64,000 nt of DNA from a virus. The notes beneath the pieces are model-generated. The model ran no database searches. It had not been told where the DNA came from and worked only from the letters and a program-made list of their open reading frames with translations. Below, in pieces: positions 25,273-63,732 of this stretch. Position 1 is the first letter of the stretch. The number at the start of each line of letters is the position of its first letter. The DNA is taken from the IMG/VR virus record IMGVR_UViG_3300032296_001209, positions 1 through 64,000 of that record; one strand, given 5' to 3'. Made by a program: the position numbers and the translations under genes.

Positions 25273-25346
25273 TCCTTGGTAGCTCAGTTGGTTAGAGCAA
25301 CTGACTGTTAATCAGTAGGTCACTGGTTCGAGTCCAGTCCAGGGAG
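25273..25346 (+). tRNA. tRNA-Asn(GTT), CCA not encoded
   Basis: Acceptor TCCTTGG/CCAGGGA, D arm, ACTGA-CTGTTAA-TCAGT anticodon arm, GTTCGA T loop. Confidence 0.95.
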
Positions 25347-25364
25347 CAAATAAAAACTAAACAC

Positions 25365-33795: not shown

Positions 33796-36700
33796 TTATC
33801 TCCTAATTTGGTACTCCATACCTTTCAAAGCTTTAACTGGATCAATTTGATTACCAGTAAATCCAAACAAGTATCCAAAGTCATTGAAAATTTTAGGTGC
33901 ACCTTCTTTCTGCCATGAGTAAGGACCTACATCTCTTGTATAGTAGGCACGGTTATCATTAGAAAGTAAGTGAAGTAAGTTAGTACCAAAATCTTTATAC
34001 TTATCTACAACGGGACCTAATGTAGGTGCTCCTCCATTGTATACTAATCCTACATATTCTTTTGGATTTAAGAAAGTAATTGTTTCTTGTCTAGTACCCA
34101 TTGTTGCAACAAGTGCATGGTTTACTAACCAGCCACCAGCATTGAAGTTATCAGATAATAAATCACCACTTCTTTGGCGCATCTTTTCAAATCTTTCTTC
34201 ATCATCCGGATCATAGTCAAATAAGTAAGCAATGATAAGAGCCAGTAATGTAATACTAATGCCTTCAGTTACTATCTTCTTAGCAGCATATGCTTCATCA
34301 TCTGTCATATACATATTACCACTAGAGGCTCTAGAAACAAAAGACTTTAAGAATCTAGCAAATGATCTGTAATAACCTTCTGTCATATCTCCACTACGCA
34401 TATTATATCTCAAAGGACTAAATCTATTTACAAACATTCTTGTAAAGAATCTTCTTAATCCTGAGAACATTCTCCATACAGCATACTTATCAAGCATTAC
34501 TTTATCCATTAAAGAATAAGCACCCTGTAAGTCGTTACTCTTTTCCTGTATAGTATTACGCATTGCTTTAAACTCTGCACCACCTGGAGCATATGTTTCA
34601 TCAATACCTGGTTTTAGTTTAATAATTCCCTGACCATCTTTCTCCCAAGCATCTATGTAATTGATCATATTTGTTTGGCCATTTACTGTTTGTGGTATCT
34701 TTTTAAAGATCATCATACCCGCAAACAAAGAAAGTGTACCTTCATTTTCTAACCATTTTCTTGGAGCAGTATATACACCATTTGATATACCTTTACCTGC
34801 TCCAAACATTAAACTATCTGCTAAGTCAGTACCAAAGGATCTACCAAACTCAGTACCAAAACGTTCTTGGAATCTACCTTTGATAGGATCAAAAATCTCA
34901 ACTAACTGATAGTCAATACTTTTCTCACCGGGATTATAGATATTAGCAGAGATGTCTGTCATTATCTTTAAAGCTTTTGACTGTCCTTGTAAATAAGAAC
35001 GCTTGTTAAGATACTTACCACCACCTGATTCAATGATCATTTGTGTAACAGCACCACCAAAGTTTTTAACTGCAGATGGTAAAATGTTAAATGCAAACAT
35101 TCCAAATGAAGATTGTGACTGTAAAATATCTACAGCTTTACTTAATGTAGTAGGCTCAGATAACCAACCGGCTTTTGTTTGTCCTTTAAACTCTCTTTCA
35201 ATAAGAGTATTGATTGCTTCAGCTCTTACGTTCTTACCTTTCTTTGCAACAAAAGATTTAATGTTGTTAGTTACCCAATTATAACCATTTACTTTAGAGG
35301 TATCCTTAATAGAATTCTCAGAGTTATTTACAACTTTCTGTAAAGCTTGAGCAATAGGATTTAACTCAATAAGTTTTTTCTGGTGCTCTAACGAGAACAT
35401 GTATTGCAATAGAGAGTACGGTACATTTAATGATACCTGATCTATATCTAGTTTATATAATCCTTTTACAGGAATAGATGAGATCTCTTCGTCAAACATG
35501 TCAGCTCTAACTAAGTTAAACGCATCATCATAGTTGAAGCCCTGATCAAAATCATCTTGAGATGTTGTTACAGCATCTTTAACTTGCTTAACAAAAGTCT
35601 TTACTTTCTCTGCACCTCTATTTAAACTACCGCCTACTAATTCACTCTTAAGCTTTCTGAATCTTGGAATATCTAAATATAGTCTACTATACTTAGTTTT
35701 ATCTTCCTGGAAAAGAAGTGTGTACTTTGTAATAACATCAAGGACATTTGCTTTATCCGGAGAATTCTTTTGTAAATCATAATAAGCTTTATTGATATAA
35801 GAATCATCCTTTGCTCCTTCTGCTACTGTTCTTGGTAACCAGTTACCACGGTTATCAACGTGCACCCCTACTTTACGCTCTACTTTACCGGTTGTTTTAT
35901 TATACCCAGTTCTGTATTCTTTTTTAACAGCTCTTCTGTAAAAATCCATAGTAGGTATTCTATCTAAAGTAACTTCAGTAGTCTCACCTGTAGATGGATT
36001 TACATCGTTATACGTGTAAGTATTATAGTATTCTAGATCAGAAGGAATTGTTACATTCCAAACATATAATCTTTCATATACGCGCTCATCCTTTTTAGTC
36101 TTACTGTTGTACTTTTCTGTTTCAATGTGATTAGCAAGAAACCATTCTTTAAATTCAGGACTTGCTTTAAAGTACTTAGATAAGAATGCGGGCTTTAAAA
36201 AATTATCTGAGTTATCAGTATTAATTTCACTAATAGTAAAACCAGCAAGTTTAGCAGGATCAATAGCCTCTAGATTATTATTAAATGCAGATAAGTAATC
36301 ATCAGTTGGTTCTTTAGATTGCATATCAGATAGCTGACTATATAAATTTAATAATGTCTTCTTAGTTAATCTATCTACAGCACCTTCTCCCTTTAATTTA
36401 TCTAATTCTTTAAACTCTTCTTTATCATTTATAGATGCTCTTCTGCTTTTAATTAACTTAGCTAGTTCTATGTATCTTTCAAACTGTAGTTTACTTAGAC
36501 CACTAAAGCCAGCCATGTTGTCTTTAATTTTAATCAGTTCTTTCTGTAGTTCTTTTACCCGTTTGATTCTTTCTTCAGACATTTCTGATCCAACAATTTG
36601 TCCATCAGCATTTCTAAATCCTACAGATATATCAATAAGCTCTTCCCAAAGCTCATCTTGCTTTAGTTTACTAGCTGCATCTTTTGGTAAACCATCTACT

Positions 36701-39354
36701 ATAGCTTTAATCTTATCAAGAATAACTTTCTTTTCATCATAGAAGCTTTCTTTAATAGATGTTCTTGTATTAGCTTTAACCCAATCATTAACGTTATCTT
36801 CAAATTCTGTATCACTAGAGAGTAAACCCTGATCTAAAAGATCTTGTTTAAATTGATTTAGCTTAAACTCAAATAGACCAGTGATCTCTTTATTTTCATA
36901 GAACTTACGAGACTCCTCTCTGTACTTTTTTTCTATCTTAGCCATCTCTAATTCATCACCAGTTTTTAATTTACCGGCTTCATCACGTAGTGAAGATAAC
37001 TGACTATACTTCTTCCATAGAATCTTCTTTTGTTCAAAAGCCTCATCTTCTGTAAGATCTTCAAATACCCTTTGATCTACATCAGCAATATCAGCTAGGA
37101 TGTTTTGCTTTCTTTGATATATGATAGAACCTAAATCAGAGTCATAGATTTTTTCTTTTGTATAAAACTCCGGTACAAACTCATCATGCATATAATCACG
37201 AGAGAATTGTCTGTACTGCTTGTTTAGTAATCTTGCTTTCTCTAAGTCTCCAACTCTTTTAGCATCTTCTATATCAAACTGAAACTGGCTTGTTACTTTT
37301 TCAAATGCTTTAAATGGATTAAGTAATACTAACTTAGTAATGGTTTTAGGGTTACCATTCTCATCACGTACAATAACTTCTTGCTCAGATACTAATTCTT
37401 TCATTAGTTCTGTAATGTTCTTATCAGAGTAACCGGCTTGTTTTAATGCTGGTAATAACTCTCTTAAGAAATCATCTTTATTCTTCTTAGCCTTTAACTC
37501 TACATCAGTGTAGGCATTGTCTAAGAATACTGAGAAACTAGCAATAATAGGATCCGGTGAACTTGCAAATGATTCTACATAAGCAGATAAAGCATTAACA
37601 TCACCACGCATTCCTGATAAGTAATCATCAACTGTAGCACGGTTTAATTTTAATCTATCCCACTCTTCTTGTACCTCTCTTATTTGTTTTGGAGTAGCAT
37701 TTTTAGATCTTAACTTCTCAAGCTTATTAGTAAAGTATGTATCTACATTTTTAGATAAGGGCTCAAGTTGTTCTGTTAATACTCCACCAACTCCTTTTTT
37801 ATAAATCTCATTAATAAGTCTGTCAGCTTGCTCTGCTTTCTTACCCATCTTAGCAAATAAAGCAAATAATGAACTATCTGTACGTAAACCGGCATCAGTT
37901 AAACCATTAGTAGTTTCTTGAATAAACTTATTCCAGTTACGTAATAAGATGTCATAATAGAATGTTTGATTGATAACCTCTTTAGTATCACCAAGAGCTT
38001 TCATATCTGTTAACTTATCTATTATTCTATCTAATAAGACATCTGTCTGTAGAGCGCTTCTTACACTAGCTGTAATTTGTTTCTCTCTCTTATCAACTTC
38101 ATCTTTAAATTTCTTAACCTTATCATCTACTGTAGTTGTTTCAGCAACACGTAAGTTATCTACTATATCTTTAAGAATAGATCTTCCTGATTCAGTTGTA
38201 ATTGTGTCTACAACATCAGAATAGTTTTGGTTTGTCCTAATTCTATTTAACTGTGATCTAGAGTTAGAAAAGAATCTATTAACTACTTGAATAAGTACAT
38301 CAGTATTAACTTTATCTAGGTCGTTATACAGAGTTTGATTATTCTTTGCATATAGTACTAGGTCTTCCGGTGTAATAATCTCTGTTGTAAGAATAAAGTT
38401 CTCTCCAACTAACATATCAGCTAACTGATTAAGTGTAGTATCTACAGATAACTTCTCAATCTTTATACCTTTACCAAATATTTTTCTGATTAACTGCTTA
38501 ATAGCAAATAACAGGTTAGAGATAAATGAATTAAATCCAGGAGTAGCAGATACTTTATTAGCTTTCTGTACAGCAGCTTGCTCTAAAGCTCTTACAAATA
38601 CTTCCTGAGCAAAATTAGGGTTAGTAATATCATACTCAGGATATAGTTCAGATACAGTATTTACAAGTGTAGCGCCTTCTGGTGTACTAATAATCTGATT
38701 GTATAGATTATTAAACAACTCATAGTTACTTAAATATAAACTTCTAACTATAGGGTGTGCATATTCATGCAGTACGTGATTTAATTTAAACCCATTCTCA
38801 ATAAGATATACAGTGTCCTGATAATAAAATGCAGGCTCACCATTCCAGGGAGAAGTTGTATCTTTTGTAATCTCTGCGGCTTGCTCAGCAGATATCATCT
38901 TATAGTTAATACCTGTCTGAGATGCTAAGTTATTAGCAAACTTAGTTGCTATCTCTTGAGCTTTTACACCCTCTTGTAACTCTACAGATGGAAACAAACT
39001 ATTTAAAAAGTCTTCATCAGCAACTCTGTAATAGTCAGGACTTTCATCAGTGATATTGTTTTTCTTTTTATACTCTTCCCAGTAATGATCAATAACAAAA
39101 CTTGGAGGATTAACAAATACTCTAGCTGTACCATCCCATGTAATAAAGTCAGCCATATTGGTTCTCCAATACTGATTTAATCCTATTACTGCCTTTACAA
39201 TAGATGAGGCACCGGCTCTTGTATCACCGGCAGCATTAACATAAAATGTAGTTAAACTATCTGTTGGAGATAAGAACTGTCCAACCTCTTTAGCTAAAGC
39301 TTTTTTATATGTCTTTAGTACATCATTCTGTATATCTAATCTACACTTACTCAT
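33796..39354 (-). CDS. giant ejected virion protein with zincin domain
   Basis: HEYAH at 38755-38769; C-terminal hydrophobic helix; start MSKC coupled by ATGA. Confidence 0.75.
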   Translation of the reverse strand: MSKCRLDIQNDVLKTYKKALAKEVGQFLSPTDSLTTFYVNAAGDTRAGASSIVKAVIGLNQYWRTNMADFITWDGTARVFVNPPSFVIDHYWEEYKKKNNITDESPDYYRVADEDFLNSLFPSVELQEGVKAQEIATKFANNLASQTGINYKMISAEQAAEITKDTTSPWNGEPAFYYQDTVYLIENGFKLNHVLHEYAHPIVRSLYLSNYELFNNLYNQIISTPEGATLVNTVSELYPEYDITNPNFAQEVFVRALEQAAVQKANKVSATPGFNSFISNLLFAIKQLIRKIFGKGIKIEKLSVDTTLNQLADMLVGENFILTTEIITPEDLVLYAKNNQTLYNDLDKVNTDVLIQVVNRFFSNSRSQLNRIRTNQNYSDVVDTITTESGRSILKDIVDNLRVAETTTVDDKVKKFKDEVDKREKQITASVRSALQTDVLLDRIIDKLTDMKALGDTKEVINQTFYYDILLRNWNKFIQETTNGLTDAGLRTDSSLFALFAKMGKKAEQADRLINEIYKKGVGGVLTEQLEPLSKNVDTYFTNKLEKLRSKNATPKQIREVQEEWDRLKLNRATVDDYLSGMRGDVNALSAYVESFASSPDPIIASFSVFLDNAYTDVELKAKKNKDDFLRELLPALKQAGYSDKNITELMKELVSEQEVIVRDENGNPKTITKLVLLNPFKAFEKVTSQFQFDIEDAKRVGDLEKARLLNKQYRQFSRDYMHDEFVPEFYTKEKIYDSDLGSIIYQRKQNILADIADVDQRVFEDLTEDEAFEQKKILWKKYSQLSSLRDEAGKLKTGDELEMAKIEKKYREESRKFYENKEITGLFEFKLNQFKQDLLDQGLLSSDTEFEDNVNDWVKANTRTSIKESFYDEKKVILDKIKAIVDGLPKDAASKLKQDELWEELIDISVGFRNADGQIVGSEMSEERIKRVKELQKELIKIKDNMAGFSGLSKLQFERYIELAKLIKSRRASINDKEEFKELDKLKGEGAVDRLTKKTLLNLYSQLSDMQSKEPTDDYLSAFNNNLEAIDPAKLAGFTISEINTDNSDNFLKPAFLSKYFKASPEFKEWFLANHIETEKYNSKTKKDERVYERLYVWNVTIPSDLEYYNTYTYNDVNPSTGETTEVTLDRIPTMDFYRRAVKKEYRTGYNKTTGKVERKVGVHVDNRGNWLPRTVAEGAKDDSYINKAYYDLQKNSPDKANVLDVITKYTLLFQEDKTKYSRLYLDIPRFRKLKSELVGGSLNRGAEKVKTFVKQVKDAVTTSQDDFDQGFNYDDAFNLVRADMFDEEISSIPVKGLYKLDIDQVSLNVPYSLLQYMFSLEHQKKLIELNPIAQALQKVVNNSENSIKDTSKVNGYNWVTNNIKSFVAKKGKNVRAEAINTLIEREFKGQTKAGWLSEPTTLSKAVDILQSQSSFGMFAFNILPSAVKNFGGAVTQMIIESGGGKYLNKRSYLQGQSKALKIMTDISANIYNPGEKSIDYQLVEIFDPIKGRFQERFGTEFGRSFGTDLADSLMFGAGKGISNGVYTAPRKWLENEGTLSLFAGMMIFKKIPQTVNGQTNMINYIDAWEKDGQGIIKLKPGIDETYAPGGAEFKAMRNTIQEKSNDLQGAYSLMDKVMLDKYAVWRMFSGLRRFFTRMFVNRFSPLRYNMRSGDMTEGYYRSFARFLKSFVSRASSGNMYMTDDEAYAAKKIVTEGISITLLALIIAYLFDYDPDDEERFEKMRQRSGDLLSDNFNAGGWLVNHALVATMGTRQETITFLNPKEYVGLVYNGGAPTLGPVVDKYKDFGTNLLHLLSNDNRAYYTRDVGPYSWQKEGAPKIFNDFGYLFGFTGNQIDPVKALKGMEYQIRR

Positions 39355-41102
39355 AATTTGCAACTATTGTATGTTTCATCTTGAACTTCAGGATATCCTA
39401 TTGGGGCATATGTATTAACTGGTTCTGCATTCTCATCCGTATTAAAACTAGTAGTGCCATCAGCAAAAGAGAAATATCTATATCCAGCGTTTGTAAACTT
39501 AAATGCATTATCAATAAAGGGATCATAGTAAATTAAATCTACTATATCTTTTGACCTACCCATTTTAACTTTAGCTTCAAAGATTTGTTTCCAGTCTTTA
39601 AAGTAGTTATCAAATATTTCAGGATAGTTACCTTCTGCAGTACGTACAAAGAAATCAAAAGTATAAGCTATGATGTTACCTTTATCATCATACTGCTTTT
39701 TACCAGCTTCATCTAATATAGGTATAATACCTTGCACGGTTACTGTCTCTTGATTAGCTTTATGGTCTTTACCAATAAATGCATTAGTCATCTCAAAGGT
39801 CGGATATTTTTCAGTAAAAGATTTATACCAATTTTGATCTTCTATAAATTCTTTTACTTTAGCTGTAAACTCATTTTGGTCTTTAATAAATATTCCCTTA
39901 TGATGTAACCAACCATAGAACTCACTATAGTTTTCTTCTTTCTGAACAGTACCTAATTCTATAACCCCATCAATATCATGTATATCTTCATCTATAGCTC
40001 TATAGACGGTGCCATAATATCTTAATACCATAGAACCACTTAACTTATAACCCATACTAGGATTATTAAGCATAAAGTCTATAATTGATTTAGCCTTTGC
40101 ATCTTTAGATAAAGTTTGATTGTACTTTTTTATCTCTAATTGTTTAAATGCTCCTAGATTATTTTTATCAGGAACTAATAAAGAGTCACCAACTTTTTCT
40201 ACACCACGTGTAAAAATATTATAATTACCTTTATAGATATCATCTACTAAATCTAATACTCTATCCTCTAGATCTTGCTGATTAAGTTTATCAAACTTAT
40301 TTCTAAACAAGGACAAAAATAAATCATGAATCTTATACCATAATTTTTGTAGAGCACTGGATTGTTTATCATAAGGATTATACTTAAAACCTCGTTTTTC
40401 AAAATACTGTTTATCTATATCACCATTACCTCGCTCACTTCTAACAAATGTGGTTAAATCTCTTCCGTAAAAATCTGTAAGACCCTCAGTAATAAAATCT
40501 ATAATTACTTGTTTGTGTGCAGTAAAATTAAAAGTTCTATCTGCATACATATCAACAAGATACGCTGGTAAATCACTATCTTTATCTAGATTTTCTTTAG
40601 TAAAAATATCTTCTACCTCTGTAGTATCTTCTAACTTTAATCTATAAGATCTGTATAGATCTTTATACTTAGACCAACTTTTAATATTAAACCAAAGATT
40701 GTTATAGAGCTCACTCTTCTTACCTAAAAAACTAAGCATGATGTTAGCCACTTGCTTTGGTACAATTTCTTCAGCACCATCTCTAATAGCTAAATACTTT
40801 TGTAATAAATCAAATCCAGCTAAAGGATTACCGGGAACATTATTTAATACAGCTTCAGCAACATTACCACCCTCAACTTTAATATTAAGAGCCTTTACAA
40901 AATCTAGTAATATCTTATTAGTTCCTGCAGATAATTTAGGATTAAGAGGAATAGAATTCTTTTTTCTATTTACAATATTCTTATATACAGTAGCTGGAGG
41001 ATTGCCCTCAAACTTATCCCAAAGATAAGTAGCCATCTTTGTACCTTGGAATGCTTCTAACCTTTGAAAGTCAGGATCTGATTTTATAGGACAGGTTGCC
41101 AT
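39351..41102 (-). CDS. virion cargo protein with Pol-beta-type nucleotidyltransferase domain
   Basis: LSGS...HDID...FDFF...K.KMGRSKDIVDL; start MATCP (TAATG overlap). Confidence 0.65.
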   Translation of the reverse strand: MATCPIKSDPDFQRLEAFQGTKMATYLWDKFEGNPPATVYKNIVNRKKNSIPLNPKLSAGTNKILLDFVKALNIKVEGGNVAEAVLNNVPGNPLAGFDLLQKYLAIRDGAEEIVPKQVANIMLSFLGKKSELYNNLWFNIKSWSKYKDLYRSYRLKLEDTTEVEDIFTKENLDKDSDLPAYLVDMYADRTFNFTAHKQVIIDFITEGLTDFYGRDLTTFVRSERGNGDIDKQYFEKRGFKYNPYDKQSSALQKLWYKIHDLFLSLFRNKFDKLNQQDLEDRVLDLVDDIYKGNYNIFTRGVEKVGDSLLVPDKNNLGAFKQLEIKKYNQTLSKDAKAKSIIDFMLNNPSMGYKLSGSMVLRYYGTVYRAIDEDIHDIDGVIELGTVQKEENYSEFYGWLHHKGIFIKDQNEFTAKVKEFIEDQNWYKSFTEKYPTFEMTNAFIGKDHKANQETVTVQGIIPILDEAGKKQYDDKGNIIAYTFDFFVRTAEGNYPEIFDNYFKDWKQIFEAKVKMGRSKDIVDLIYYDPFIDNAFKFTNAGYRYFSFADGTTSFNTDENAEPVNTYAPIGYPEVQDETYNSCKL

Positions 41103-44100
41103 TAGCCACAAATTTCTTTTAATATTTCACCAATTGTATCTTCATCATATCCCATTTCTTCTAGCATTTTAGAATTAATAGCAGATGCTGGATAAATGTT
41201 ACCATCAACTAAAGTTACCTCTTTTTCTTTTACAACTTGATCCTCAGTATCTGGGGCACTATCAGCATCTTCTTCAAAGACCTGATTGATAGGTTGCACA
41301 GAATAAATATACTCTTTAAATTCCGGATCTTCTGCAAACACAGGATTTTTATACCCAAAGTTATAGTATAACTCTTTAAATAACTCCATATAAGCTGGCT
41401 TATCAATATTAGGATCATCATTTAAGATACCATATCCTTCTTTGTTAAAGAGTAATGTTTTACCAGCCTCATATAATTCTATAAGAGTAGTAACAGTATC
41501 CTCTACTAACTTCATATTGTTAGCAGTATCTGCAGCATTTAAGTATTTAGCTTTACCAACAAATGATTCAAAGATTGGTAATCCTATAGTAGTACCAGTT
41601 ACTTTACTAGCATTACCTAAGTAAGTATCTGAAGCAATAACATTAGTTCCGGTATTATCTTTTGCTTTACTATATATACCAACTAGACCTGAGTATTTAT
41701 TAATCAGTCCTATAGTACGCATCTTACCATAAGAATAAGTATATACTCTAGGAGTTAATGTTGAAGATGTACCCTCTGGTAATTTAGGAACTTCATCACC
41801 CATCTTTTCAATAGTATTATCTACTACATAGTTTTTAAACCTGTACTTAGTAATGTTATTTCTAGAGTTCTGCTCACCAAACTTTTTATAGTATCTGTAT
41901 AAAGCAGTATTACCCTTATCACTTTCTAATACTTTAGTGAACTTATCAATGTTTTCTTTAATGATATCTTTAAAGTTATTACTAGATAAGATAGGAACAA
42001 ATGATAAGTATGACTTATTCATACCAGACTGCATGAATCCAAAGATAGATAACTTGTTAAAGAACTCAGAAATCTCTCTATTGATAATAGGATCAGGATT
42101 CTTTTCTACATTTACATCAGATAGTTCTTCAAACTGGATATTCATTTCTTCTAAGAAATCAGGATCTTTTGTATCACCAGTTAAACGTAAGTTTTTAATT
42201 GTTGCATTCTTAGTAGGAGTCTTAATCTGCTGCGAATCATAAACCAGGTAATCAAACAAACTATAGTCTTTATTTTCTATAGCATTCTTTACCATCTCAA
42301 ACTTATCTGGGAAACTATTGGTACCAAAGAACATTGACTTCAGATTGTATACATTATGTAAAGCATCTTGAACAAGACCTTTTTCATAGATATCATCTGA
42401 AAAAATACCTTTATCTCTAGTAGCACGTAAGTATTCTCTCTCTAAAACAAAAGCAGTATACTGTTTTTCAGAACTAAATAAAGGTATAACATCTGTACGT
42501 TTATCAGCTGGTAATTTTGCTAAACCTGTTTCTTCATACTCAGCCTTAGAATAAGTTTTATTATTATACTCCTCACGTAACTTGGCTCTATCTAAATAGA
42601 TCTTACCTTCATAGTATACAGCGCTTCTTTTAAGACCTCTTACCTTCTCTACATCAATAGAATCACTTACAGCATAACCTTTGTAATCTTTTACTGTATT
42701 GATATCTACAGATCCAATACTATTCTGAATGATAAACTGAAGAAGATCATTTCTAAATAAATCTACAAATGATTCTACATCTTTATACTCTTCACGGATG
42801 ATATTATAGTTGTTGTTAATTATATCAGTTAAGTAAGTATTTATGGTATCACTTGCTCTTAATGGGAAGTAATCTTTAAATACGTTTAAGATATAATCCT
42901 GTATAAAGAATGGAGCAATAGAAGATTGATTTTCCATTCTTGTTGTAATCTCTTGAGGTAATCTATTACCCTCCTCTAATTGTTCTAATTTACTTAAACG
43001 ACTCTTTGCTTGGAACAAGTTACCAGACTTCTTAGTATCAACGTTAGTAGAAGAAGAAATTTCCCGCATTACTTGTGCTTGATCCTCTACTTCTAAGAAA
43101 TGTATAAAGGATAACATAGCAAGAGGACTTCTTTTCTCACCATTCTGTACAACCTTTTTAATATTCTCATTAGAGATAGCATAAACATTATAAGCTTTAG
43201 TCATAATGTCTACTGCTGCAGTTAAAGATTTTTTAGAAGCCAATGGATTCTTCATTGTATTTGCATTATACAATTGCTTAAGTAAGAAAGGATCCTTTAT
43301 TTTTTTCTTTAACTCAAGTTTATGCTCAGGATCAAATAAACCATATTTGTTTATTACATACTGTTTTGCTTTAAACTTTAAGAAACCAGGACCTTTAGCA
43401 CTATCTCCAGAAGCATCTAATGATTTAGTGTACATACCATTTAATACTCTGTATGCAGATATATAATCTCTAATTAAAGGTTGTGATAAGAAATAAGAAG
43501 CAGTTTCAACATCAACACCGGCTTGTAACATATACAACAATGTAGGTGTTAACTCGTAGATAGCATTCATATCAAATACCCAAGAGTCTTTTTCAACATC
43601 CACCCATCCATTCATAAGCTGAGATATTACATCTGAGATATAAACAGCTGAATCTTTAGAGTTAAGATCTGATAAAGATATTTTACCATCCTCTGTTTTG
43701 TTATGTTTAAATAGAATACGATTCTTAGCAGTTCTTGTCTTTCCTTTACTATCTAAGAAAGTATAAGTCTTATTTAAATATGCACCAACACGGTTAAGAA
43801 GTACTGAATATTTGTTTGATACAGCACCAATACCTAAAGTTAATTTACCAATGTTATTAGACTCATGCTTATATAAGTTATTCTGAGTCTCAAACATTCT
43901 TGTTGGAGAAATAATAAATTCAGAACTCTGGAACTCAGCTTTAGCTCTTGGATCATATTCTCTATTATATTTTGCTAATTCATCTGCAATTGGTTTAACA
44001 ATATCTGTTTCGTTAGGAGTAATAAGCTGAACAAAGTTTTCCTTAATCTCCATTATACCAATCATAGACTTAATGATCTCATTCTCAATACCTCTTATAG

Positions 44101-47100: not shown

Positions 47101-50100
47101 AGTCTTCAAGTACCTTATCTATATTTAAAATAGGTGTTGAACCTTTCTTTCTAATTACATACTTAGATTTACTAACTAGGAACTTAGAATTAAAAGTATT
47201 AATGATCTTTGTTGTATCACTAGTAGCTCTCTGAATGTATGTAGAAACTTTAGTTGAACTAGGTTTTCCTTCCTCTTCTTCAATAGAAGTAGAAAGCCTG
47301 TGCTCTATAATAGGAGTTACTGTTTTATTAAATGTTTGAGCAAATCCTAACCAACGTTTAAAGTTAGCATTATTAATTTGAGATTGACTTGGATCTCCCA
47401 ACTTAGCAATTAACTGTGCTACTTCTGGAAAACTTTCTTGTAAGCCAATTAACTTAGTATATATCTCATCAAAACTATTTGAGTTAATTAAGGTTTTAGA
47501 TATGGTACTCCAAGCTTTACCAAACTCAACAAGCTTATTAAAACCTAATCTGTTCTTGATAGGTTCTCCGTTTGCTTTTACTTGGTATAAACTCTTAACC
47601 ATATAAAGAGCTTGTTTAGAAGCTAACTCTTTTAATGATTTATCATTACCGGTACGGTCAAAACTATCTATACTTGGATCTGACTTATCTTCTTCTGCTT
47701 CAAGAACTTTTGCTTCAAATGCTAAGTACTTAGATTTTTGTCTATGATAAGCAATAACACCTGATTTTTCTTTACCAGAAATAACGTTATCTAATTCACC
47801 AAAGTTATTAATAGCATACTCTAAAATCCGAATATTATTTCTATCTACAGTATCAGCACCATCAGGATCATTTTCAACTCTAGCAATTGTATCAGTTAAA
47901 ATATCTTGAAAGTACTGCTTAGTATTCTTATATAAGAAATCTAATGCTCTCTTATCACTATAAATAGCTGAAACGTTTAATCCAGTAGCATTAATAATTT
48001 CTGAAAAAGCACCATCAACTGATTCATTGATTAACCTACTATCTGATAAACTAATACTTGGTTCTTCTTCATTTAATGGATCTATACCTCTATACAAGTT
48101 ACCAAACTGCATGTTCTCTACAGAGTACGCATACTCAAATAGATTACCCAATCTTAAGTTATCATATAACTCTTTTACTAATGGTACAACAGTGGGGTCT
48201 ACAATATCAGTTTGACCGGTAAAGAAAGCTTTTACAATACGCCATAATTTCTGGAAGATGCTCTCATTAGGTTTAACAAGAATTTTCTTACCATCAGATA
48301 ACACATAACCTCTAAAGTCTTCAGCTAAGTATTCTTCTACTTGCTTATCTGTAGCATTAGCTAAATACTTAACTCCTTTTCTTACTGAATTATATAAGCT
48401 TTGCTTTTGATCTTGTGTTAATAGTAACTGAGAGAATGCATGCCATGCTTCATGGTATAACGTAGTGTAATCTTTTTTACCGGCTTTTGTAAATAATGTA
48501 ATACCACTAGAACTAAATAGTCCCAATGCATCTGAGTTAGTTAAAGCAATTGCTTCATTAACCGGAATCATTGTAGAAAGTTTTACTTTCTCACCATCTA
48601 CCATAACCTCTAAAGATCCATACCAATCTTTAATCTTCTTAATCTCTTCAGGTGTAGTATTTACAGTTTTAAATCCGGCTCTTTTTAGACTATTATTAAT
48701 ATCATTAATAAGGTCCATATCAAATGTACCTTTAAAACCAGAGGGTGTAGTATTTACATTCTGATTCTTGATAACAGTTTTAGGTTTAGCTTTTACTTTA
48801 GCTTTTGGTTTGGTTTCTTTAGTCTCTTCTTCAGCTGGTACCTCTTGTTTCTTTTCAGTTGGATACATTTCTTCTAATGCCTCTACTGTAAATTCATACT
48901 GCAGACTGGGATTAAAAGTTTTAATAGTACCATCATTACGTAATACAGTAAATACTACGGTATTCTGTCTTACAAAGTCATTATAGTTAACCTTACTTTT
49001 TGCAAACTTTCCTGACTTATAGTTAGGTACATCTATCTTACCATCAATGTTATCCTTTGATATGTTTATATAAGCAGTAGCTAATTGCTCTGCTATAAAA
49101 TCTTCATCAGCTAAATCCGGATTTTCAGAATCATATATCACATCCTTATCTGAATAGATACTTAACAATGGTTTCTTAGTAGTATTATCATAACTGATAT
49201 TAAAAGTACCATCATTAATATTATAGATGTTCTCTAGTATTCCAAACTTTACAGCGGTTGATACTTTAGGATCTACAATAAGCTTTGCAAGATTCTTAGC
49301 TAACTCAGCAGATGTTTTATTTGGAAATATCTGTACTAGATCACCAAACTTATCTAACTTCAAATATGTTTTACCAAAGTTATCAAACTCTATATTACTA
49401 ATAGTATCTGAAGTAACATTACTTACCTCTGTTAACTTAACAGGAGTATCAGATAATAAGTTAAAACCAGATCTACCACCAACTATATTTAAAGGTAAAG
49501 CTAAAGTCTTATTACCTATGAAGGTCTTAATAAACTTATCTACTAACTGTACTTCTTTAGTTCTTTGATCCTCTAATTGTTTTCTTAAGACATCAGCATC
49601 TGGAATTTCTACTCCAGCTTTAGCAGCCCTAGCAATAGTTCTTTCTACAAGTTCATCTATAGGTGCAAGACTGGTTTCACCACTCTCTATAAATATAAAT
49701 TCTCTTTTACCCTTATTAGTGTTAGGGGTAATGAAATCAGTTACGGGAATAATAGCACCTTCTGCTTCATCCTGACCCTCAATGTTTGTAATATAACCTC
49801 TGCTATTTACAAAGATTTTCTTATATCCATCTTTAGTAAGTGTGGCAAAAGATAACTGTGTAATTCTACTACCTCTAGATGTAATTATATCAGTAGGAAT
49901 CATATAGATCCCTTTGATCTTGGTACCGTTAGATGCGGTTATCTCTATTTGTTCAGCACTATTTAGATTTTGTTTACTTAATCTATCTAGAATAGAACGC
50001 ATAAATGCATATGTAGCAATCTTTTCAGGATCTGGATCTGCCTCACCTATTAGTTCACCCTCATCATTAACCTCTTCTTCTTGACCAGTGGTAACTAGAC

Positions 50101-50545
50101 CGGTAGTATGCTTTGCTTGAAATTCTATATCATTACTTAATTCTGTTGCTTTCTCTAATTGAGAACTAACAATACCAGCTTTCTTTCTTACTTGCTCTAG
50201 TCTTTCTGGACTTAACTCTTTTACAGCAAGGTATTTTTCTACAACAGTAACATCTTCAAAGCTATCTCTAAGATCTAAAACATCATCAGTACTAATTTGA
50301 TTATCTCTAAGATGCTTACGAACATTAGGATTTTTGTTAACAATAGTAGCAACTATTCTTGGAAGTAACTGTATATAGGTTAATCCTAAACTAGGATCAT
50401 TACTGGCAGCAACTACTTGCTCATAAAATTGATTAACGTAATCTTTTAAATTATAAGGTGTTTTGTTATCTGTAATTACAGATAAATCTTTAAAAACTTT
50501 AGCATAAAACTGCTGCTGTTGTAATGCGGATAGTGAGCAATTCAT
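41102..50545 (-). CDS. crAss-like virion RNA polymerase (two-barrel) with zincin domain
   Basis: RIP.Q and GGDFDIDK (44222-44236), EGDGQG, HEAWH (48440-48454); 3147 aa. Confidence 0.9.
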   Translation of the reverse strand: MNCSLSALQQQQFYAKVFKDLSVITDNKTPYNLKDYVNQFYEQVVAASNDPSLGLTYIQLLPRIVATIVNKNPNVRKHLRDNQISTDDVLDLRDSFEDVTVVEKYLAVKELSPERLEQVRKKAGIVSSQLEKATELSNDIEFQAKHTTGLVTTGQEEEVNDEGELIGEADPDPEKIATYAFMRSILDRLSKQNLNSAEQIEITASNGTKIKGIYMIPTDIITSRGSRITQLSFATLTKDGYKKIFVNSRGYITNIEGQDEAEGAIIPVTDFITPNTNKGKREFIFIESGETSLAPIDELVERTIARAAKAGVEIPDADVLRKQLEDQRTKEVQLVDKFIKTFIGNKTLALPLNIVGGRSGFNLLSDTPVKLTEVSNVTSDTISNIEFDNFGKTYLKLDKFGDLVQIFPNKTSAELAKNLAKLIVDPKVSTAVKFGILENIYNINDGTFNISYDNTTKKPLLSIYSDKDVIYDSENPDLADEDFIAEQLATAYINISKDNIDGKIDVPNYKSGKFAKSKVNYNDFVRQNTVVFTVLRNDGTIKTFNPSLQYEFTVEALEEMYPTEKKQEVPAEEETKETKPKAKVKAKPKTVIKNQNVNTTPSGFKGTFDMDLINDINNSLKRAGFKTVNTTPEEIKKIKDWYGSLEVMVDGEKVKLSTMIPVNEAIALTNSDALGLFSSSGITLFTKAGKKDYTTLYHEAWHAFSQLLLTQDQKQSLYNSVRKGVKYLANATDKQVEEYLAEDFRGYVLSDGKKILVKPNESIFQKLWRIVKAFFTGQTDIVDPTVVPLVKELYDNLRLGNLFEYAYSVENMQFGNLYRGIDPLNEEEPSISLSDSRLINESVDGAFSEIINATGLNVSAIYSDKRALDFLYKNTKQYFQDILTDTIARVENDPDGADTVDRNNIRILEYAINNFGELDNVISGKEKSGVIAYHRQKSKYLAFEAKVLEAEEDKSDPSIDSFDRTGNDKSLKELASKQALYMVKSLYQVKANGEPIKNRLGFNKLVEFGKAWSTISKTLINSNSFDEIYTKLIGLQESFPEVAQLIAKLGDPSQSQINNANFKRWLGFAQTFNKTVTPIIEHRLSTSIEEEEGKPSSTKVSTYIQRATSDTTKIINTFNSKFLVSKSKYVIRKKGSTPILNIDKVLEDFSLINKYNVFDFLKAIGFYLDNNPTLRAALENAVVDRKSKETHIAFDYLIEALEKAKENKTIITNPIKFFRDPKQGNQAGYVSKLLTLQARYTSSDFSTGIMNPEGNMEYETSLRNSLSQIIDGLNKLEFMDQMLQDPEFQYLSVYHPNNNPYAKHSYIINSLFDANGNRRKDVILSLENLSGIRRDFNGITVEGIKTNKLNKYDKFMFDVHAIILGKTPELPRHASKSSSYGVGMNKYYGESGVDNLILPIKDVARYGHDSAMPIILNYLSAELERIWYIKNIPSLQNVDSFKKNGTKIMAFDSVLSGPTKAKLYELVDNADSIDDIVYSEELEKAIKKDSGKYFDNQIKTNYKIWTQISAVTGSVLLSPEIRNKIAEETRIGKGLDKTNIYAINPQDQLELVNEVYTYNSWFNNFETQLFYGDASQFKHDKEEFPKRNAAIASTGDFSILDKYTIDYLNNTSNNTYAEKEGLPKLRFDSAVKTTVLDDVEPESVYYSHYKQLLTSLGVSEDRAEKILKPYKKITEGDGQGWITFDFYRNFLRSLNKWSDIQEDLYNQIINDPASVDPRKASEFFPVLKASYYGPLKTEKLNVSGLHKFSLMPLIPSVIKDTNLEQFHKQLLEQGISYALYKSGSKISNITLEDGTIPNMYTDATKRTLYSGEYPINGINLNFFKNQLDIAPYFKGKVTLSSQLRTIIETNLYANGKPLKKEYKPIVERYEKAIDNYVKFYKQKLFKEVGLEFSADGKLIKGDPKDLIKAIQKELVRLEVPEHQMDILDVNEDGSLKYDFDSIINSNAIEKQLVAIIERKIVRPTVRGEQLVQVSSSGFENPKFSNPSKEDLLKYGTNGLAFYDIVDGKITPMQVKIALQGDFLKLLTTIHTDGKPVNTLARLNEMLKDTLWQSINGETIKMIGVRIPVQGLNSIEYMEVGEFLPPEAGSIVIVPTELVAKSGGDFDIDKLSILMPNIGIAKDTTTDSEYKSLLDDLFSKEAMMTTDDTTIRGIENEIIKSMIGIMEIKENFVQLITPNETDIVKPIADELAKYNREYDPRAKAEFQSSEFIISPTRMFETQNNLYKHESNNIGKLTLGIGAVSNKYSVLLNRVGAYLNKTYTFLDSKGKTRTAKNRILFKHNKTEDGKISLSDLNSKDSAVYISDVISQLMNGWVDVEKDSWVFDMNAIYELTPTLLYMLQAGVDVETASYFLSQPLIRDYISAYRVLNGMYTKSLDASGDSAKGPGFLKFKAKQYVINKYGLFDPEHKLELKKKIKDPFLLKQLYNANTMKNPLASKKSLTAAVDIMTKAYNVYAISNENIKKVVQNGEKRSPLAMLSFIHFLEVEDQAQVMREISSSTNVDTKKSGNLFQAKSRLSKLEQLEEGNRLPQEITTRMENQSSIAPFFIQDYILNVFKDYFPLRASDTINTYLTDIINNNYNIIREEYKDVESFVDLFRNDLLQFIIQNSIGSVDINTVKDYKGYAVSDSIDVEKVRGLKRSAVYYEGKIYLDRAKLREEYNNKTYSKAEYEETGLAKLPADKRTDVIPLFSSEKQYTAFVLEREYLRATRDKGIFSDDIYEKGLVQDALHNVYNLKSMFFGTNSFPDKFEMVKNAIENKDYSLFDYLVYDSQQIKTPTKNATIKNLRLTGDTKDPDFLEEMNIQFEELSDVNVEKNPDPIINREISEFFNKLSIFGFMQSGMNKSYLSFVPILSSNNFKDIIKENIDKFTKVLESDKGNTALYRYYKKFGEQNSRNNITKYRFKNYVVDNTIEKMGDEVPKLPEGTSSTLTPRVYTYSYGKMRTIGLINKYSGLVGIYSKAKDNTGTNVIASDTYLGNASKVTGTTIGLPIFESFVGKAKYLNAADTANNMKLVEDTVTTLIELYEAGKTLLFNKEGYGILNDDPNIDKPAYMELFKELYYNFGYKNPVFAEDPEFKEYIYSVQPINQVFEEDADSAPDTEDQVVKEKEVTLVDGNIYPASAINSKMLEEMGYDEDTIGEILKEICG

Positions 50546-50549
50546 ATTA

Positions 50550-53500
50550 TTAACAACCTATATTATTAAAGAAATCATTATTTACATCTTTTTCAGACTT
50601 GTTATTAGTCTGATCTTCAAGTTTCTTAGTGGCTTCCTCATTATCTAAGAAGTCATCTATATTCTGTGAGTTAGTCTCAATAATCTTTTTCTCTTCTGCT
50701 GAAGGAGAAGGAACATCTTTAGTACCAACTACTACATTGGACTCTGTATCATATAATGATTTTACCATTTTTGAGAAATCTTTCTTTAAAATTGTAATGC
50801 GTTTATTAGCATCTTTTGCCGGAGTCATACGCTCACCATACAAAGGTACTACAGTTAACTTAGTTGAAGTAACTTTCTCAACCAAACCAAACTTATTATC
50901 CCCAAATACTAATACATCTCCCACTTTAACATTCTCATACTTTACAGACTTACTCAACTCTTGTTTACGAGACTCAATTGCTTTATTAACTGCATCAATA
51001 TTAGCTGGATCTTCAGCCAGTAAATCTAAATCTAGTTCTTCTAGCATAGTATCTAACTCACCAAGTGACTTGGCTTTACTAATTGTATCTAGGATTGGTT
51101 GTAATGGATCAGTAACTACTTCAGCTTCTATAACCGGTTCTTCTTCTACAGGTTCTTCTGTTTTAACAGGTTCAGCTTTAGGTGCTTCTGCTGGTTTTGC
51201 TGGAGCTTTCTTTTCATTAAATGCTTTAACATCTGCAGCATTCTCAGGATCTTTAAAGAACTTAGTAATAATTCTTCTAGCTGAAGCTGTACGTAAGAAT
51301 CTATCTAAAGGTAATTCTGATTCACCATCAGCTTCTCTAGCAGAATTCTGTTGAGTTAATGCAGATCTAATTAAACCTTGTAGCTTAACTGGTAATGTAT
51401 TAAACTGTTTAACTGATTGAATTAAAGGTACACCCTCTTCTTGCTGTATCTCATCTGATACAGCGGGTTGATCTTCTACCACTTCTTCTTCTGTAACTAC
51501 TTCTTCTGCTGGAGCTTCCTCTGTTACTTCTTCAGTTACAATACCATCAAACTCGTTAATAATACTAAAGATAAGTAAAGATCTTGGATCAGTCTTATCA
51601 AACTCTCTATCTGAATTAAAATCTATAAATACAACATCTAGATCATTAATAATAGTTTTTACAAACTCATCATAATCTTTACTTACATCTTTAGGTAAAG
51701 AAGATAGTTTTATACCATAACCTCTATCAGCTAGATACTGAATAAAATCTCTAACCTTTACAGCATTAATAAAAGACTTTCTAGCATTTTGCATATAAGC
51801 AACTTGCTTTTCTTGTCTATATTTTTGTTGTTCTACAAGTCTATTTACATAATCATAGAAACTCTGTGGATCATATAATGAATTCAGATTCTCTGTAAAT
51901 ATATTTACATCATCTGATAATGAATAGTAATCAGTTATTATATTATAAGCTTCCGCAGCTTCAGTTTTAGAGATAGTTGTACCTGCCTCTTGTGCTAAAG
52001 TATTAAAGTATTTAATAAAAGCATCTCTTAAAAATCTTTTATTTTTTAATTGTTCAGAATCAGATACATCTCCAACTTTCTCAAGATTTGTTTTATATAA
52101 CTCTAATGCTTTCTTCTTAGCTTTTTTATAATTAAGAATCTTTAAAGTTTCTTTATCTGTAGAACCGGTTAATGATTTGATTTCACTATCTAATAAATCT
52201 AACTCTTGTTCAAGATTGTTAGAATTTAATAAGGGTGTAATATCTGAGTATGTTAATTTACCAATTGTACCAATAGCTGTAAGTCTATCAGTAAGCTCAC
52301 CCATTCTTTTCTGGGCTTGCTCTCTACCATGTAAACTAAATACAGCAACCTTTCTTGCTTCTTCAAATGCTTTATAGTTTATTACTTCTTTAACATAAGC
52401 ATCTTTAGTTTCAGGATCTGATAGATTAGTTCTTCTAAATCTATTAGGATTAAAAGGATTTTTATAATCTGAGAATTCTTTATACTGCTCTTTAACTTGT
52501 TTAGCTCTTTCAATACTAACATCTAATACCTTTAAAGCATCTTCATCAGTTACATCTTCAGTTAAATCAAAGGCCTCTTTTAATTCAGAACCCTTCATAT
52601 CTTTTAGATTCTCTAGCTTTTGTATTAAGAGATCAAATTTACCAGATTCTAATGCTGTATAAATACTATTAAACCGTGCCATATCTTTTAGATCATGAAA
52701 AACTTTCTCATCAAAGTTCTTCCTAGCCTCTACCATGTCTGTACCTAATCTAACTTGCGTTAGTAGATTTTCCATATCTAAAGTTAAAACCTTCTGACCA
52801 TTCTTAATAGCATCATCTAATTCAGTAACTATACTTTTAAATCTTTCTTGTTCTGCTTTATATAATTGATTATACTTTTCAGGATCATTTTTAATGTAGT
52901 TATAATAAACATTAGAACCCGCTCTTCTTGATACATTAGCTAAATTACCAGCAATACCGGTAAGACCACCCATCAAAAATCCTGACGCAAATACTTCAAG
53001 ACCTTGCATAGAAGCTTGTCTCTTAGTATTCTCATAGGCATCAGCCAAGTAAATCATAATACCACCAGCTTCTGGGGTATCATATAATCTATCATAATAG
53101 TTCTTAGAAGCACCAGCCACAACCTCTTGAGAAATTTCCTGAATACCTTCAGATAAGTTTCTCTTAAAGTATTGGGCTCCAAAGCTTAAATACTCTTTAG
53201 GTTTTAATAATTTCTTAGCTGCTTCTTTTGCAGTTAAAACTGTAGCACCTTCTGTACTAGCAATAATCTTTTCTCCAGTTAATGCTGATCTAGCAATAAC
53301 ATCATTTGTTGGAGCATTTAGCATTGCTGCTTTACCCTTAAATAAGTTATTAAAGGTGATAGCATTTGTAAGATATATAAGCGGTGTGTTAATAGCACTA
53401 GTGGTAAAACCAGCATCACCAGCTAAACTATATATCCGGTTCATCTCTTCCTGTTCTGGATAGTATCCGTTCTCAGAAACAAACTGATTTATCTTATCAT

Positions 53501-54539
53501 CAATAAATTCATTCTTAACAGCACCACCTTCCATAGAAGCTTCAGCAACTGTATAACCAACTTGCTTAAGATCTAATATAAAATCACCAACGTTTCTTAC
53601 AGCATTAGCATAACCAATTACATTATCTCCAGCATTTACTGTATTCCTAATATTTGTTAAAGTTCTTGGTACAAGCGCTTCTGCAACACTTGTAACTCCT
53701 TGACCCAGCTTGGTAGCATTTAAACCTTTAATAGAGCTATAAGCTTCCCTTGCACCATTAGCGGTGAATAACTTACGCATGTTAGCTAAGTCTTTAGCAG
53801 CTTTAACTGTCTTAGCAGAACTAGCTGCTAGAGCTGCTGGTAAAGTAGCGCCTTCGGTTAATGCTACACTACCTGCAATTACAGCTTCAGTTAATAAATA
53901 GTCTCCAACAATACCTGCTACAAATCCAGATTGCAATAATAAATTAGAGGCAAACTGTGTAGCACCACCTTTAGTACTACCATACTCAGCCATAATTTTA
54001 GCAAACTCATCCGCAGCTACTTCATCTGTCATTGAGAAATCACCGGTGAGCATCTCACCCATTCCTCTGTAGCTAGACTTAACTACAGATAAACCTAGTG
54101 CCGGTACTCCTAATAAGCCTCTACCAAGATCCTCATACCAAGATCTATTTTGATTATAGATCTCATCGTTATTAGCTAAAGGATCAAAACCTAATTTATA
54201 GAAGTTATCATTATCACTATAGTATCTATTAAAGTTAGTTTTCTGATATCCGGATTGAAAAGTTTTAATTTTAGACTTTTCAAAGACAATATCAGATTCA
54301 GTAATAGGAGATCTTAAAACATCCTTAGTAATATCAAAAGGATTATTCTTATTATAATTTACTTCAAATCCTCCAGTAGGAACTGCTGGTATACTTACAT
54401 CTTCATTATAAGGAACTAATGGTGCACCGGGTGGTAATGAATTCATACCATCTACAAATACCATATCTGGTCCTTGTAATGAATTAGGTATACCGGTTTC
54501 TATACCTGGAGGTGGTAAAATGTTTTCAAAATCTGCCAT
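50550..54539 (-). CDS. giant ejected virion protein
   Basis: 1329 aa; Gly/Ala-rich membrane-active segments; upstream of the vRNAP gene. Confidence 0.7.
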   Translation of the reverse strand: MADFENILPPPGIETGIPNSLQGPDMVFVDGMNSLPPGAPLVPYNEDVSIPAVPTGGFEVNYNKNNPFDITKDVLRSPITESDIVFEKSKIKTFQSGYQKTNFNRYYSDNDNFYKLGFDPLANNDEIYNQNRSWYEDLGRGLLGVPALGLSVVKSSYRGMGEMLTGDFSMTDEVAADEFAKIMAEYGSTKGGATQFASNLLLQSGFVAGIVGDYLLTEAVIAGSVALTEGATLPAALAASSAKTVKAAKDLANMRKLFTANGAREAYSSIKGLNATKLGQGVTSVAEALVPRTLTNIRNTVNAGDNVIGYANAVRNVGDFILDLKQVGYTVAEASMEGGAVKNEFIDDKINQFVSENGYYPEQEEMNRIYSLAGDAGFTTSAINTPLIYLTNAITFNNLFKGKAAMLNAPTNDVIARSALTGEKIIASTEGATVLTAKEAAKKLLKPKEYLSFGAQYFKRNLSEGIQEISQEVVAGASKNYYDRLYDTPEAGGIMIYLADAYENTKRQASMQGLEVFASGFLMGGLTGIAGNLANVSRRAGSNVYYNYIKNDPEKYNQLYKAEQERFKSIVTELDDAIKNGQKVLTLDMENLLTQVRLGTDMVEARKNFDEKVFHDLKDMARFNSIYTALESGKFDLLIQKLENLKDMKGSELKEAFDLTEDVTDEDALKVLDVSIERAKQVKEQYKEFSDYKNPFNPNRFRRTNLSDPETKDAYVKEVINYKAFEEARKVAVFSLHGREQAQKRMGELTDRLTAIGTIGKLTYSDITPLLNSNNLEQELDLLDSEIKSLTGSTDKETLKILNYKKAKKKALELYKTNLEKVGDVSDSEQLKNKRFLRDAFIKYFNTLAQEAGTTISKTEAAEAYNIITDYYSLSDDVNIFTENLNSLYDPQSFYDYVNRLVEQQKYRQEKQVAYMQNARKSFINAVKVRDFIQYLADRGYGIKLSSLPKDVSKDYDEFVKTIINDLDVVFIDFNSDREFDKTDPRSLLIFSIINEFDGIVTEEVTEEAPAEEVVTEEEVVEDQPAVSDEIQQEEGVPLIQSVKQFNTLPVKLQGLIRSALTQQNSAREADGESELPLDRFLRTASARRIITKFFKDPENAADVKAFNEKKAPAKPAEAPKAEPVKTEEPVEEEPVIEAEVVTDPLQPILDTISKAKSLGELDTMLEELDLDLLAEDPANIDAVNKAIESRKQELSKSVKYENVKVGDVLVFGDNKFGLVEKVTSTKLTVVPLYGERMTPAKDANKRITILKKDFSKMVKSLYDTESNVVVGTKDVPSPSAEEKKIIETNSQNIDDFLDNEEATKKLEDQTNNKSEKDVNNDFFNNIGC

Positions 54540-60793: not shown

Positions 60794-61341
60794 GTCTTAT
60801 TTTTTAATATACTATCACAAAAGAAATATAATTCATCTAAAGTTAAATCTGATTTCATTTGATTTATAGCCATGCAAACAAATTGTATATTACCTTGGAT
60901 ATATCCTTTTTTACTATCAATTCTATCTATACTTAAGTTAGTTAAAATTCTACCTTTATTACTTAAATATGTCATATCAATTTGAGATAAAGCACATTTA
61001 CCTTCTTGCTTATTCCATATTTCTTTTAAATAATCTAAATCAATATTAACTTCTAACTTTAAACGATTCGCTCTATCTTTTAATCCTAAAAATCTTTTAT
61101 TTAATAACTGTTCAAAAGTAGAATTATTATTACTTAATAATCTTTTTTTATACTGTGAGTGCTTACAATCCTTACATCTTCTATCTTTACCATCTCTATA
61201 AAAAATATTACTCTCTTCAGAATTATTATCAAACAAATTAATATCTTTATAGTCTTTGCATTTATAACAATACAAATTCCCTAAATCATCTTTTTGTTTA
61301 AATTTAGTTCTGTGTCTTCTTTTTTTATCAGATGTATTCAA
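60790..61341 (-). CDS. free-standing HNH-type homing endonuclease
   Basis: CxxC...CxxC; GKCALS; SIDRIDSKKGY..GNIQFVC..INQMK; visibly more AT-rich than neighbours. Confidence 0.8.
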   Translation of the reverse strand: MNTSDKKRRHRTKFKQKDDLGNLYCYKCKDYKDINLFDNNSEESNIFYRDGKDRRCKDCKHSQYKKRLLSNNNSTFEQLLNKRFLGLKDRANRLKLEVNIDLDYLKEIWNKQEGKCALSQIDMTYLSNKGRILTNLSIDRIDSKKGYIQGNIQFVCMAINQMKSDLTLDELYFFCDSILKNKT

Positions 61342-63727: not shown

Positions 63728-63732
63728 TTTAG

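Follow-up and report, generated by a model that had tools for sequence, protein, structure and literature searches.

Cysteines facing each other across gene junctions suggest an end-to-end tether of giant cargo proteins in crAss-like phages

In the Anabaena phage A-4L (cyanopodophage A4, Saffermanviridae), the internal proteins gp27 and gp26 are joined by a disulfide bond in the virion, as the accessible text of a cryo-electron microscopy study of the pre-ejectosome describes (PNAS 2025; PMC12002296). In the A-4L genome each of the two proteins has a sole cysteine, at residue 1715 of gp27 (1717 amino acids, aa) and at residue 5 of gp26 (1114 aa). For crAss-like phages, the accessible parts of the literature report that mass spectrometry detects the proteins of the corresponding block (gp67-gp66-gp65 of phi14:2; gp47, gp50 and gp49 of crAss001) in virions, and that disulfides connect subunits in the tail and the portal vertex of crAss001 particles (crAss001: PMC10172136). 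Drobysheva et al. noted that the crass polymerase block also occurs as fused polyproteins, and processing of these by cleavage has been proposed in the literature. The ejection proteins of the Schitoviridae (gp50, the virion RNA polymerase of N4; gp71-gp73 of DEV) are reported to be free of cysteine, a suppression explained by passage through the periplasm (PMC11445570). Here, we describe four consecutive minus-strand genes, named A, B, C and D in gene order (A -> B -> C -> D; 33796-54539), in a window that comprises the first 64 kb of the 97,353-bp IMG/VR virus record IMGVR_UViG_3300032296_001209 (~33% G+C; record 81% complete). Their products add up to 6,911 residues with six cysteines in total, all of them close to chain ends that face each other across the gene junctions.

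On the minus strand of the window, six very large genes follow one another from 60.8 to 33.8 kb, the block being formed by these four:

50550..54539, minus strand: protein A, 1329 aa; the sole cysteine is the last residue (codon 50553-50555), tail ...NNIGC; no N-end cysteine.
41102..50545, minus strand: protein B, 3147 aa; Cys3 (50537-50539) and Cys3146 (41108-41110), head MNC..., tail ...EICG.
39351..41102, minus strand, ATG at 41102: protein C, 583 aa; Cys4 (41091-41093) and Cys581 (39360-39362), head MATC..., tail ...NSCKL.
33796..39354, minus strand, ATG at 39354: protein D, 1852 aa; Cys4 only (39343-39345), head MSKC...; no C-end cysteine.

The coordinate of each cysteine codon was verified in the translations. 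The claim of the initial annotation that the four genes hold six cysteines, all terminal and facing, proved exact, with no internal cysteine missed, and the translations bear out its remark that the first protein lacks an N-terminal and the last a C-terminal cysteine. Genes B and C overlap in the sequence TAATG, and C and D in ATGA. For both C and D a TTG codon lies three codons upstream of the ATG; its use as start would shift the cysteine from position 4 to 7 and leave the pattern unchanged.

The observation is confirmed and highly non-random. The other 81 open reading frames (ORFs) of the 97-kb genome (23,794 aa) contain 1.40% cysteine, a rate at which A-D would be expected to hold ~97 cysteines versus the six seen (binomial P ~5e-34). 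In frame 2 of A, B, C and D the triplets TGT and TGC occur 88, 180, 25 and 109 times, versus 1, 2, 2 and 1 times in frame; since they are so frequent out of frame in the same genes, the depletion is due to selection at the protein level, not to base composition. A cysteine within the first 6 residues is found in 2/80 other ORFs, and one within the last 8 residues in 4/80. Other structural proteins of the genome are rich in cysteine (up to 4.5%). Three proteins of structural size outside the window, at 80147-83419, 84725-86245 and 94662-97352, have 45/1090, 23/506 and 26/896 cysteine residues, respectively; they are the opposite of the cargo block and recall the disulfide-stabilized tail of crAss001.

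The arrangement is shared by relatives of each protein. In the A family, 39/42 members have a single cysteine at -1 to -8, none of the 42 has one at the N end, and there is 1 internal cysteine in 60,862 residues. The B family (120 relatives of 2,000-5,200 aa, with identity down to 22%) includes 92 members with both end cysteines, and 43 internal cysteines in 442,373 residues. In the D family, the N-end cysteine is present in 71/74 and a C-end cysteine in 0/74. The offsets peak at residues 3-4 at the N end and at -1 to -3 at the C end; the flanking residues and codons vary between lineages while the cysteine is retained.

At the level of junctions, cysteines stand on both sides in 21/21 cases checked, across 14 crAss-like genomes of the Steigviridae, Intestiviridae, Suoliviridae and the environmental clade of the window. 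The named genomes in this count are phi14:2, crAss001, IAS virus, p-crAssphage, crAss002, cr118_1, cr52_1, cr108_1 and cr3_1; of the window and five related contigs, the window contributes 3 junctions, L007 2 and L016/L020 2, with L024 and L025 in addition, and one of these contigs is 37% identical. Counting cysteine positions in orthologous crAss-like clusters, the check proposed at the outset, thus returned terminal cysteines that are conserved and matched across the junctions. In the genomes examined, the outer ends of the block never have a cysteine, and Cys tails equal Cys heads in number in each genome. In phi14:2 the cysteines lie at -1 of gp67, at 3 and -2 of gp66 and at 3 of gp65; in crAss001 they lie at -3 of gp47, at 5 and -9 of gp50 and at 5 of gp49. 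In crAss001 (gp47) and IAS virus (gp058) the gene for the first protein is read from the strand opposite to that of the two others, yet its product still has a C-end cysteine only, which rules out an explanation by overlapping stop and start codons.

Several public gene models bear on the count. The annotated start of crAss002 gp33 (L011:17139-29876) is probably 32 codons too far upstream; translated from Met33 the protein begins MSCTPSN... and fits the head rule, facing the sole cysteine of gp32 at -2. The coding sequences (CDS) of IAS virus gp055 and gp056 (L012:14129-23111) overlap at a stretch of N bases and may be one gene, with the head MSLYC and the tail ...NLCxK. The cr108_1 polymerase (NC_055878.1; L030:17782-18073) is annotated as two CDS separated by 290 nt, the break falling inside the catalytic motif (...AKAGSD / LYDIDK...); no cysteine flanks it, so that an intervening element or a faulty annotation seems likelier than a protein junction.

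Which cysteine belongs with which? Natural fusions are informative in this respect. The C domain was compared in 115 representative relatives. Both end cysteines are present in 29 of the 54 stand-alone family members (<1,300 aa, some of them probably fragments). Where C and D are fused, 17/18 proteins have the N-end cysteine and lack one at the C end, and a cysteine at the fusion point is found in 0/18; where the C domain instead extends a giant protein at its end, the C-end cysteine is retained. Fusions thus lack the junction pair that split forms have, which indicates that a peptide bond and a cysteine pair substitute for each other. The two ends of one protein are also independent. The N-end cysteine is missing from 27 B relatives, of which 24 keep the one at the C end; this, together with fusions that keep a head without a tail, speaks against cyclization within a single protein. 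The relatives without the N-end cysteine have an N-terminal extension, and their single internal cysteines lie in conserved core motifs, not at a junction. The possibility that they are A-B fusions was rejected, as A-like sequence was absent by phmmer and by an A-family hidden Markov model. Four B relatives (P0097, P0100, P0101 and P0113) have a recurrent internal cysteine in the motif ..TDAFGxCTFDWYR..; Ile occupies this position in window B and in the consensus, and the change is a buried, lineage-specific substitution rather than a junction.

Comparison with the related contig L020, whose polymerase (P0021) represents a cluster of 12 member sequences, delimits one link of the block by its blastn break points:

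39438..41202, minus strand: link cassette of 1,765 bp, absent from L020; it holds the last 33 codons of B (with the Cys tail), the stop/start overlap and codons 1-555 of C.

The L020 polymerase ends with the 28-residue tail (39354-39437) that C carries in the window, and this tail faces an unchanged D head. The tail therefore stays with the head that it faces, not with the body that carries it. A second variable site lies in D, the conserved body of which begins at about residue 100-140; the stretch ahead of it varies from 40 to ~1,050 residues and is always capped by a Cys head in relatives, some of which have precomputed Pfam matches to LysM, ART-PolyVal or HATPase_c_3 there or elsewhere in the protein. 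The nucleotidyltransferase (NTase) module of C is a clasped link of its own in the window; in relatives it may be joined to D or to the giant protein, or be missing. The initial annotation had proposed that the cargo proteins are joined C-to-N in gene order and that further cargo could be added through two terminal cysteines. The order part of this proposal is favored by the junction-facing cysteines, their loss on fusion and the co-inheritance of tail and head, although a disulfide itself has been seen only in the unrelated A-4L; the addition part is supported, in so far as the tail travels with the faced head when a link is removed or added. The interpretation as a whole is supported in part, ordered threading, fixed stoichiometry and release on cytoplasmic reduction being inference. 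Complex prediction of whole C with the last 200 residues of B, run without alignments, returned 'no answer' (score 0.00) and speaks neither for nor against.

The identities of the four proteins are not apparent from direct searches. No PHROGs or Pfam family was assigned to A, B, C or D, searches of PDB sequences with the single proteins gave no match, and the region had no megablast match in the phage collection. When B was aligned with 21 homologues, the motif DFDID (B 2104-2108; 44222-44236) and a zincin-like HEAWH motif (48440-48454) were invariant. The profile of these 22 sequences matches PDB 6VR4, the phi14:2 gp66 RNA polymerase, with E 2e-45, and tblastn matches of the B core are limited to Crassvirales polymerase genes. 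B is identified by this homology as the crAss-type two-barrel virion RNA polymerase. D has a zincin-like HEYAH motif at residues 196-200 (38755-38769), nearly invariant among relatives, and its profile aligns with phi14:2 gp65 at an hhalign probability of 98.4% (E 8e-15); from about residue 120 its body is, judged by profile, homologous to gp65, the polymerase-associated zincin protein. The chain thus holds two separate zincin-like HExxH motifs, in B and in D, while the phi14:2 literature describes one in gp65 only.

For C, the residues G356, S357, D376 and D378 of a GS...DxD motif (39969-40037) are invariant in 22 sequences. The predicted model has a predicted local distance difference test score (pLDDT) of 76.8, with residues 549-583 of the tail, including Cys581, predicted to be disordered. 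Residues 330-545 of the model align by VIA-align with LnuA (Z 9.1; 131 residues, root mean square deviation 3.0), ANT(2'') (Z 8.1) and MenT1 (Z 8.1), and Foldseek gives weak matches of the same nucleotidyltransferase class. No Pfam or PDB sequence match was found for C, nor any usable match in the ESM Atlas. The region ~330-545 (39468-40115) is assigned on the predicted model to the nucleotidyltransferase fold of the Pol-beta superfamily; the label 'NTase protein' first given to C holds as a fold assignment, through both motif and structural match. For A, no relative of known function was detectable; the profile probability with phi14:2 gp67 is 3.4% and not significant, and their agreement is limited to position and cysteine pattern. 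Homology to proteins found by phi14:2 and crAss001 proteomics suggests that A-D are packaged in the virion and ejected.

The best-supported reading of these data is a junction-specific tether between neighbors, which is well supported by the sequence comparisons. That the terminal cysteines are selected as junction partners can be held with much more confidence than the full model of an end-to-end disulfide thread A-B-C-D, which we consider rather likely. By analogy with A-4L, the chemistry of the clasps in crAss-like phages would most likely be a disulfide. According to the full model, A-D would be internal virion proteins that must cross the tail unfolded; internal cysteines are selected against, as is known from the ejected proteins of N4-like phages, and a cysteine is kept 1-8 residues from every end facing a neighbor. 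Within the mature particle, a bond, most likely a disulfide, would join the C-end cysteine of each protein to the N-end cysteine of the one that follows. The product would be a single thread A-B-C-D of N-to-C orientation that passes the channel like one polypeptide, and because the cysteines lie within a few residues of the chain ends the side stubs would be short, making passage through a narrow channel possible. As one protein leaves, it would pull the following one into the portal, which would fix the order and a 1:1 ratio; reduction in the cytoplasm would then undo the clasps and release the polymerase, NTase and zincin proteins. A clasp can take the place of a peptide bond, as the fused forms show, and is portable, so that cassettes can add or remove links.

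It is possible to go further and to consider Cys tail plus Cys head as a portable clasp with which unrelated podophages (Crassvirales, Saffermanviridae) assemble a modular train of injected proteins, recombination splicing effector cargo in frame or out while delivery order is kept. This extension is tentative, and we place it slightly below an even chance. If it were correct, the 1,765-bp cassette (tail, stop/start, head and nucleotidyltransferase body) would be one such event, and the variable N-terminal slot of D, with its LysM, ART, ATPase or NTase modules, would be a site of cargo exchange.

Other roles for the terminal cysteines have to be weighed against the neighbor tether. Disulfides might form with non-neighbors, giving like-with-like dimers or networks (N-N, C-C), or B and C might each close on themselves while the A tail pairs with the D head. 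Cysteine counts are even in every arrangement of the block, partners are not identifiable from sequence alone, and several copies of each cargo protein per crAss001 virion have been estimated (accessible text of PMC10172136). Non-neighbor pairing is nevertheless unlikely: against it stand ends that behave independently (the 24/27 B relatives; C-D fusions with the N-end cysteine only), the joint absence of the junction cysteines on fusion, an L020 tail kept with its faced head, first proteins that never have an N-end and last proteins that never have a C-end cysteine, and the A-4L pair, a bond of C-tail to N-head. Alternatively, the cysteines may anchor the cargo to a fixed part of the particle, such as the portal, the inner capsid or Cys-rich tail proteins, until triggering. 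A covalent bond of this kind would need to be broken outside the reducing cytoplasm, and anchoring leaves unexplained the Cys-less outer ends of the block, the joint absence of junction cysteines on fusion and the equal numbers of tails and heads. We consider it quite unlikely, even allowing for the Cys-rich structural proteins of the genome (45/1090 aa; 23/506 aa), the many structural disulfides of crAss001, and the lone C-end cysteines of p-crAssphage gp47 and crAss002 gp30.

The cysteines may also act without any Cys-Cys bond, in a metal-bridged clasp, as sites of lipid or other modification, or through short-lived mixed disulfides to thiol oxidoreductases of the host periplasm, which would serve as an entry ratchet. 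The chemistry is not fixed by sequence, the assembly compartment is reducing and many hosts are anaerobes, all of which leave room for such a role; one cysteine per end, on the other hand, offers too few ligands for a usual zinc site, the N ends have neither lipobox nor signal peptide, a function of single ends does not predict paired loss on fusion, and the only solved case is a disulfide. A role of this kind is about as improbable as anchoring. At the N end, chemistry of the lipoprotein or native-ligation type was considered separately and rejected, as a lipobox is absent and B has Asn at position 2, a residue that blocks Met removal through the specificity of methionine aminopeptidase. Hardly any credence can be given to an origin of the pattern in chance, wrong gene starts or a nucleotide signal at overlapping stop and start codons. 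Overlaps do exist at B/C and C/D, and some public starts are wrong (crAss002 gp33). The binomial probability given above and the change of surrounding residues and codons from lineage to lineage while the cysteine stays speak against such an origin, and translational coupling in particular is rejected as its source because the rule is kept for opposite-strand genes (crAss001 gp47 and IAS virus gp058), far from the start of the partner.

A number of points weigh against the neighbor tether itself. The cytoplasm in which virions assemble is reducing, and anaerobes of the gut are frequent among the hosts, which makes oxidation and its timing hard to place, and no thioredoxin or glutaredoxin gene was found in the 81%-complete record. 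No cargo-cargo disulfide has so far been observed in a crAss-like phage, and the accessible text of the crAss001 and phi14:2 papers does not mention the terminal cysteines. Counting cysteines does not by itself separate pairing of neighbors from other pairings. There are also exceptions to the rule. The relatives P0098, P0099 and P0107 have no end cysteines (P0098 has no relative among the viral contigs), and gut lineages have internal ones: 10 in IAS gp056, and 7 in p-crAssphage gp44 besides that at the N end. Finally, p-crAssphage gp47 (L010:4790-7363) and crAss002 gp30 (L011:6444-8117), both cargo proteins encoded upstream of the polymerase block, have a lone C-end cysteine, at -2 and -8 respectively, with no Cys-headed protein after them; their 855- and 1207-aa counterparts in the window are Cys-free.

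The large genes that precede the block on the same strand lie outside the clasped chain:

54548..57115, minus strand: 855-aa protein upstream of the chain; Cys-free, also in relatives; not clasped.
57170..60793, minus strand: 1207-aa protein; Cys-free, with a basic N end; not clasped.

Both had appeared Cys-free on first reading, and their translations contain zero cysteines. The junctions of the 855-aa protein have a cysteine on neither side. The 1207-aa protein occupies the position of the crAss001 cargo protein gp45, a correspondence by position only. Overlapping the start of its gene is a 183-aa ORF (60790-61341, minus strand) with two CxxC pairs (Cys 25, 28, 56 and 59), possibly a zinc ribbon, and upstream of this ORF an 808-aa protein (61328-63754, minus strand) matches DUF5872 and DUF5754. 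The plus-strand half of the window contains one tRNA-Asn (GTT) gene at 25273-25347.

It is still unexplained how a short-tailed phage moves several proteins of 150-350 kDa out of its head in order, through a channel a few nm wide. A reversible covalent link from end to end would, if true, offer a simple answer, the cargo acting as one polypeptide until it meets the reducing cytoplasm. It would also give a new reading of the 'polyprotein' forms of the polymerase block, explain the free interconversion of fused and split forms, and offer a natural route for the addition of injected effectors such as the nucleotidyltransferase C. The Crassvirales include the most abundant human gut viruses, and the idea is testable at once in cultured phages and probably also in existing mass-spectrometry data. 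A literature search of incomplete coverage found no mention of terminal cysteines in crassvirus cargo; within that coverage there is no earlier description of the terminal-Cys rule for Crassvirales, the A-4L disulfide pair being already known. The window contributes a chain of four links, a link cassette with clean limits, and the split, fused and absent series of the NTase module.

Compared with the systems described so far, the locus combines features that occur separately elsewhere. The C-D fusions and the fusions of the giant protein with C among its relatives have the same domains joined by peptide bonds as the polyproteins of Drobysheva et al. The relation suggested here is the opposite of the cleavage proposal, in that split forms would be re-joined by clasps. 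The tail and portal disulfides of crAss001 are fixed structural bonds between shell proteins with many cysteines, and not end-to-end links of ejected proteins. The Schitoviridae, like the window, eject a giant virion polymerase together with partners in which cysteine is strongly suppressed; the initial annotation described the N4 polymerase as Cys-free, in agreement with the report on that family (PMC11445570). However, suppression is reported as complete in the Schitoviridae, whereas in the window the Cys-free rule applies to the interior only and six conserved terminal cysteines remain, and the two polymerases are of different kinds.

The A-4L proteins gp27 and gp26 resemble the window in being consecutive giant internal proteins with sole cysteines at facing ends. 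They form one pair with no RNA polymerase, whereas the window has three junctions and includes the polymerase. In the accessible text of the A-4L paper, the bond is described as stabilizing the pre-ejectosome ring, and a general rule, the equivalence of split and fused forms, and cassettes are not mentioned (PMC12002296). Against A-D, BLASTP of gp26 and gp27 reached no E better than 0.6, and no match was obtained with profiles built for A, C and D; the window may thus work like the A-4L pair by analogy, relatedness by descent not being supported by sequence. The block of phi14:2 and crAss001 shares the two-barrel polymerase (DFDID), the gp65-like protein and the same cysteine rule. Differently from these phages, the window has four links, the polymerase and the gp65-like protein being separated by an additional protein of predicted nucleotidyltransferase fold, and B too has a zincin-like motif.

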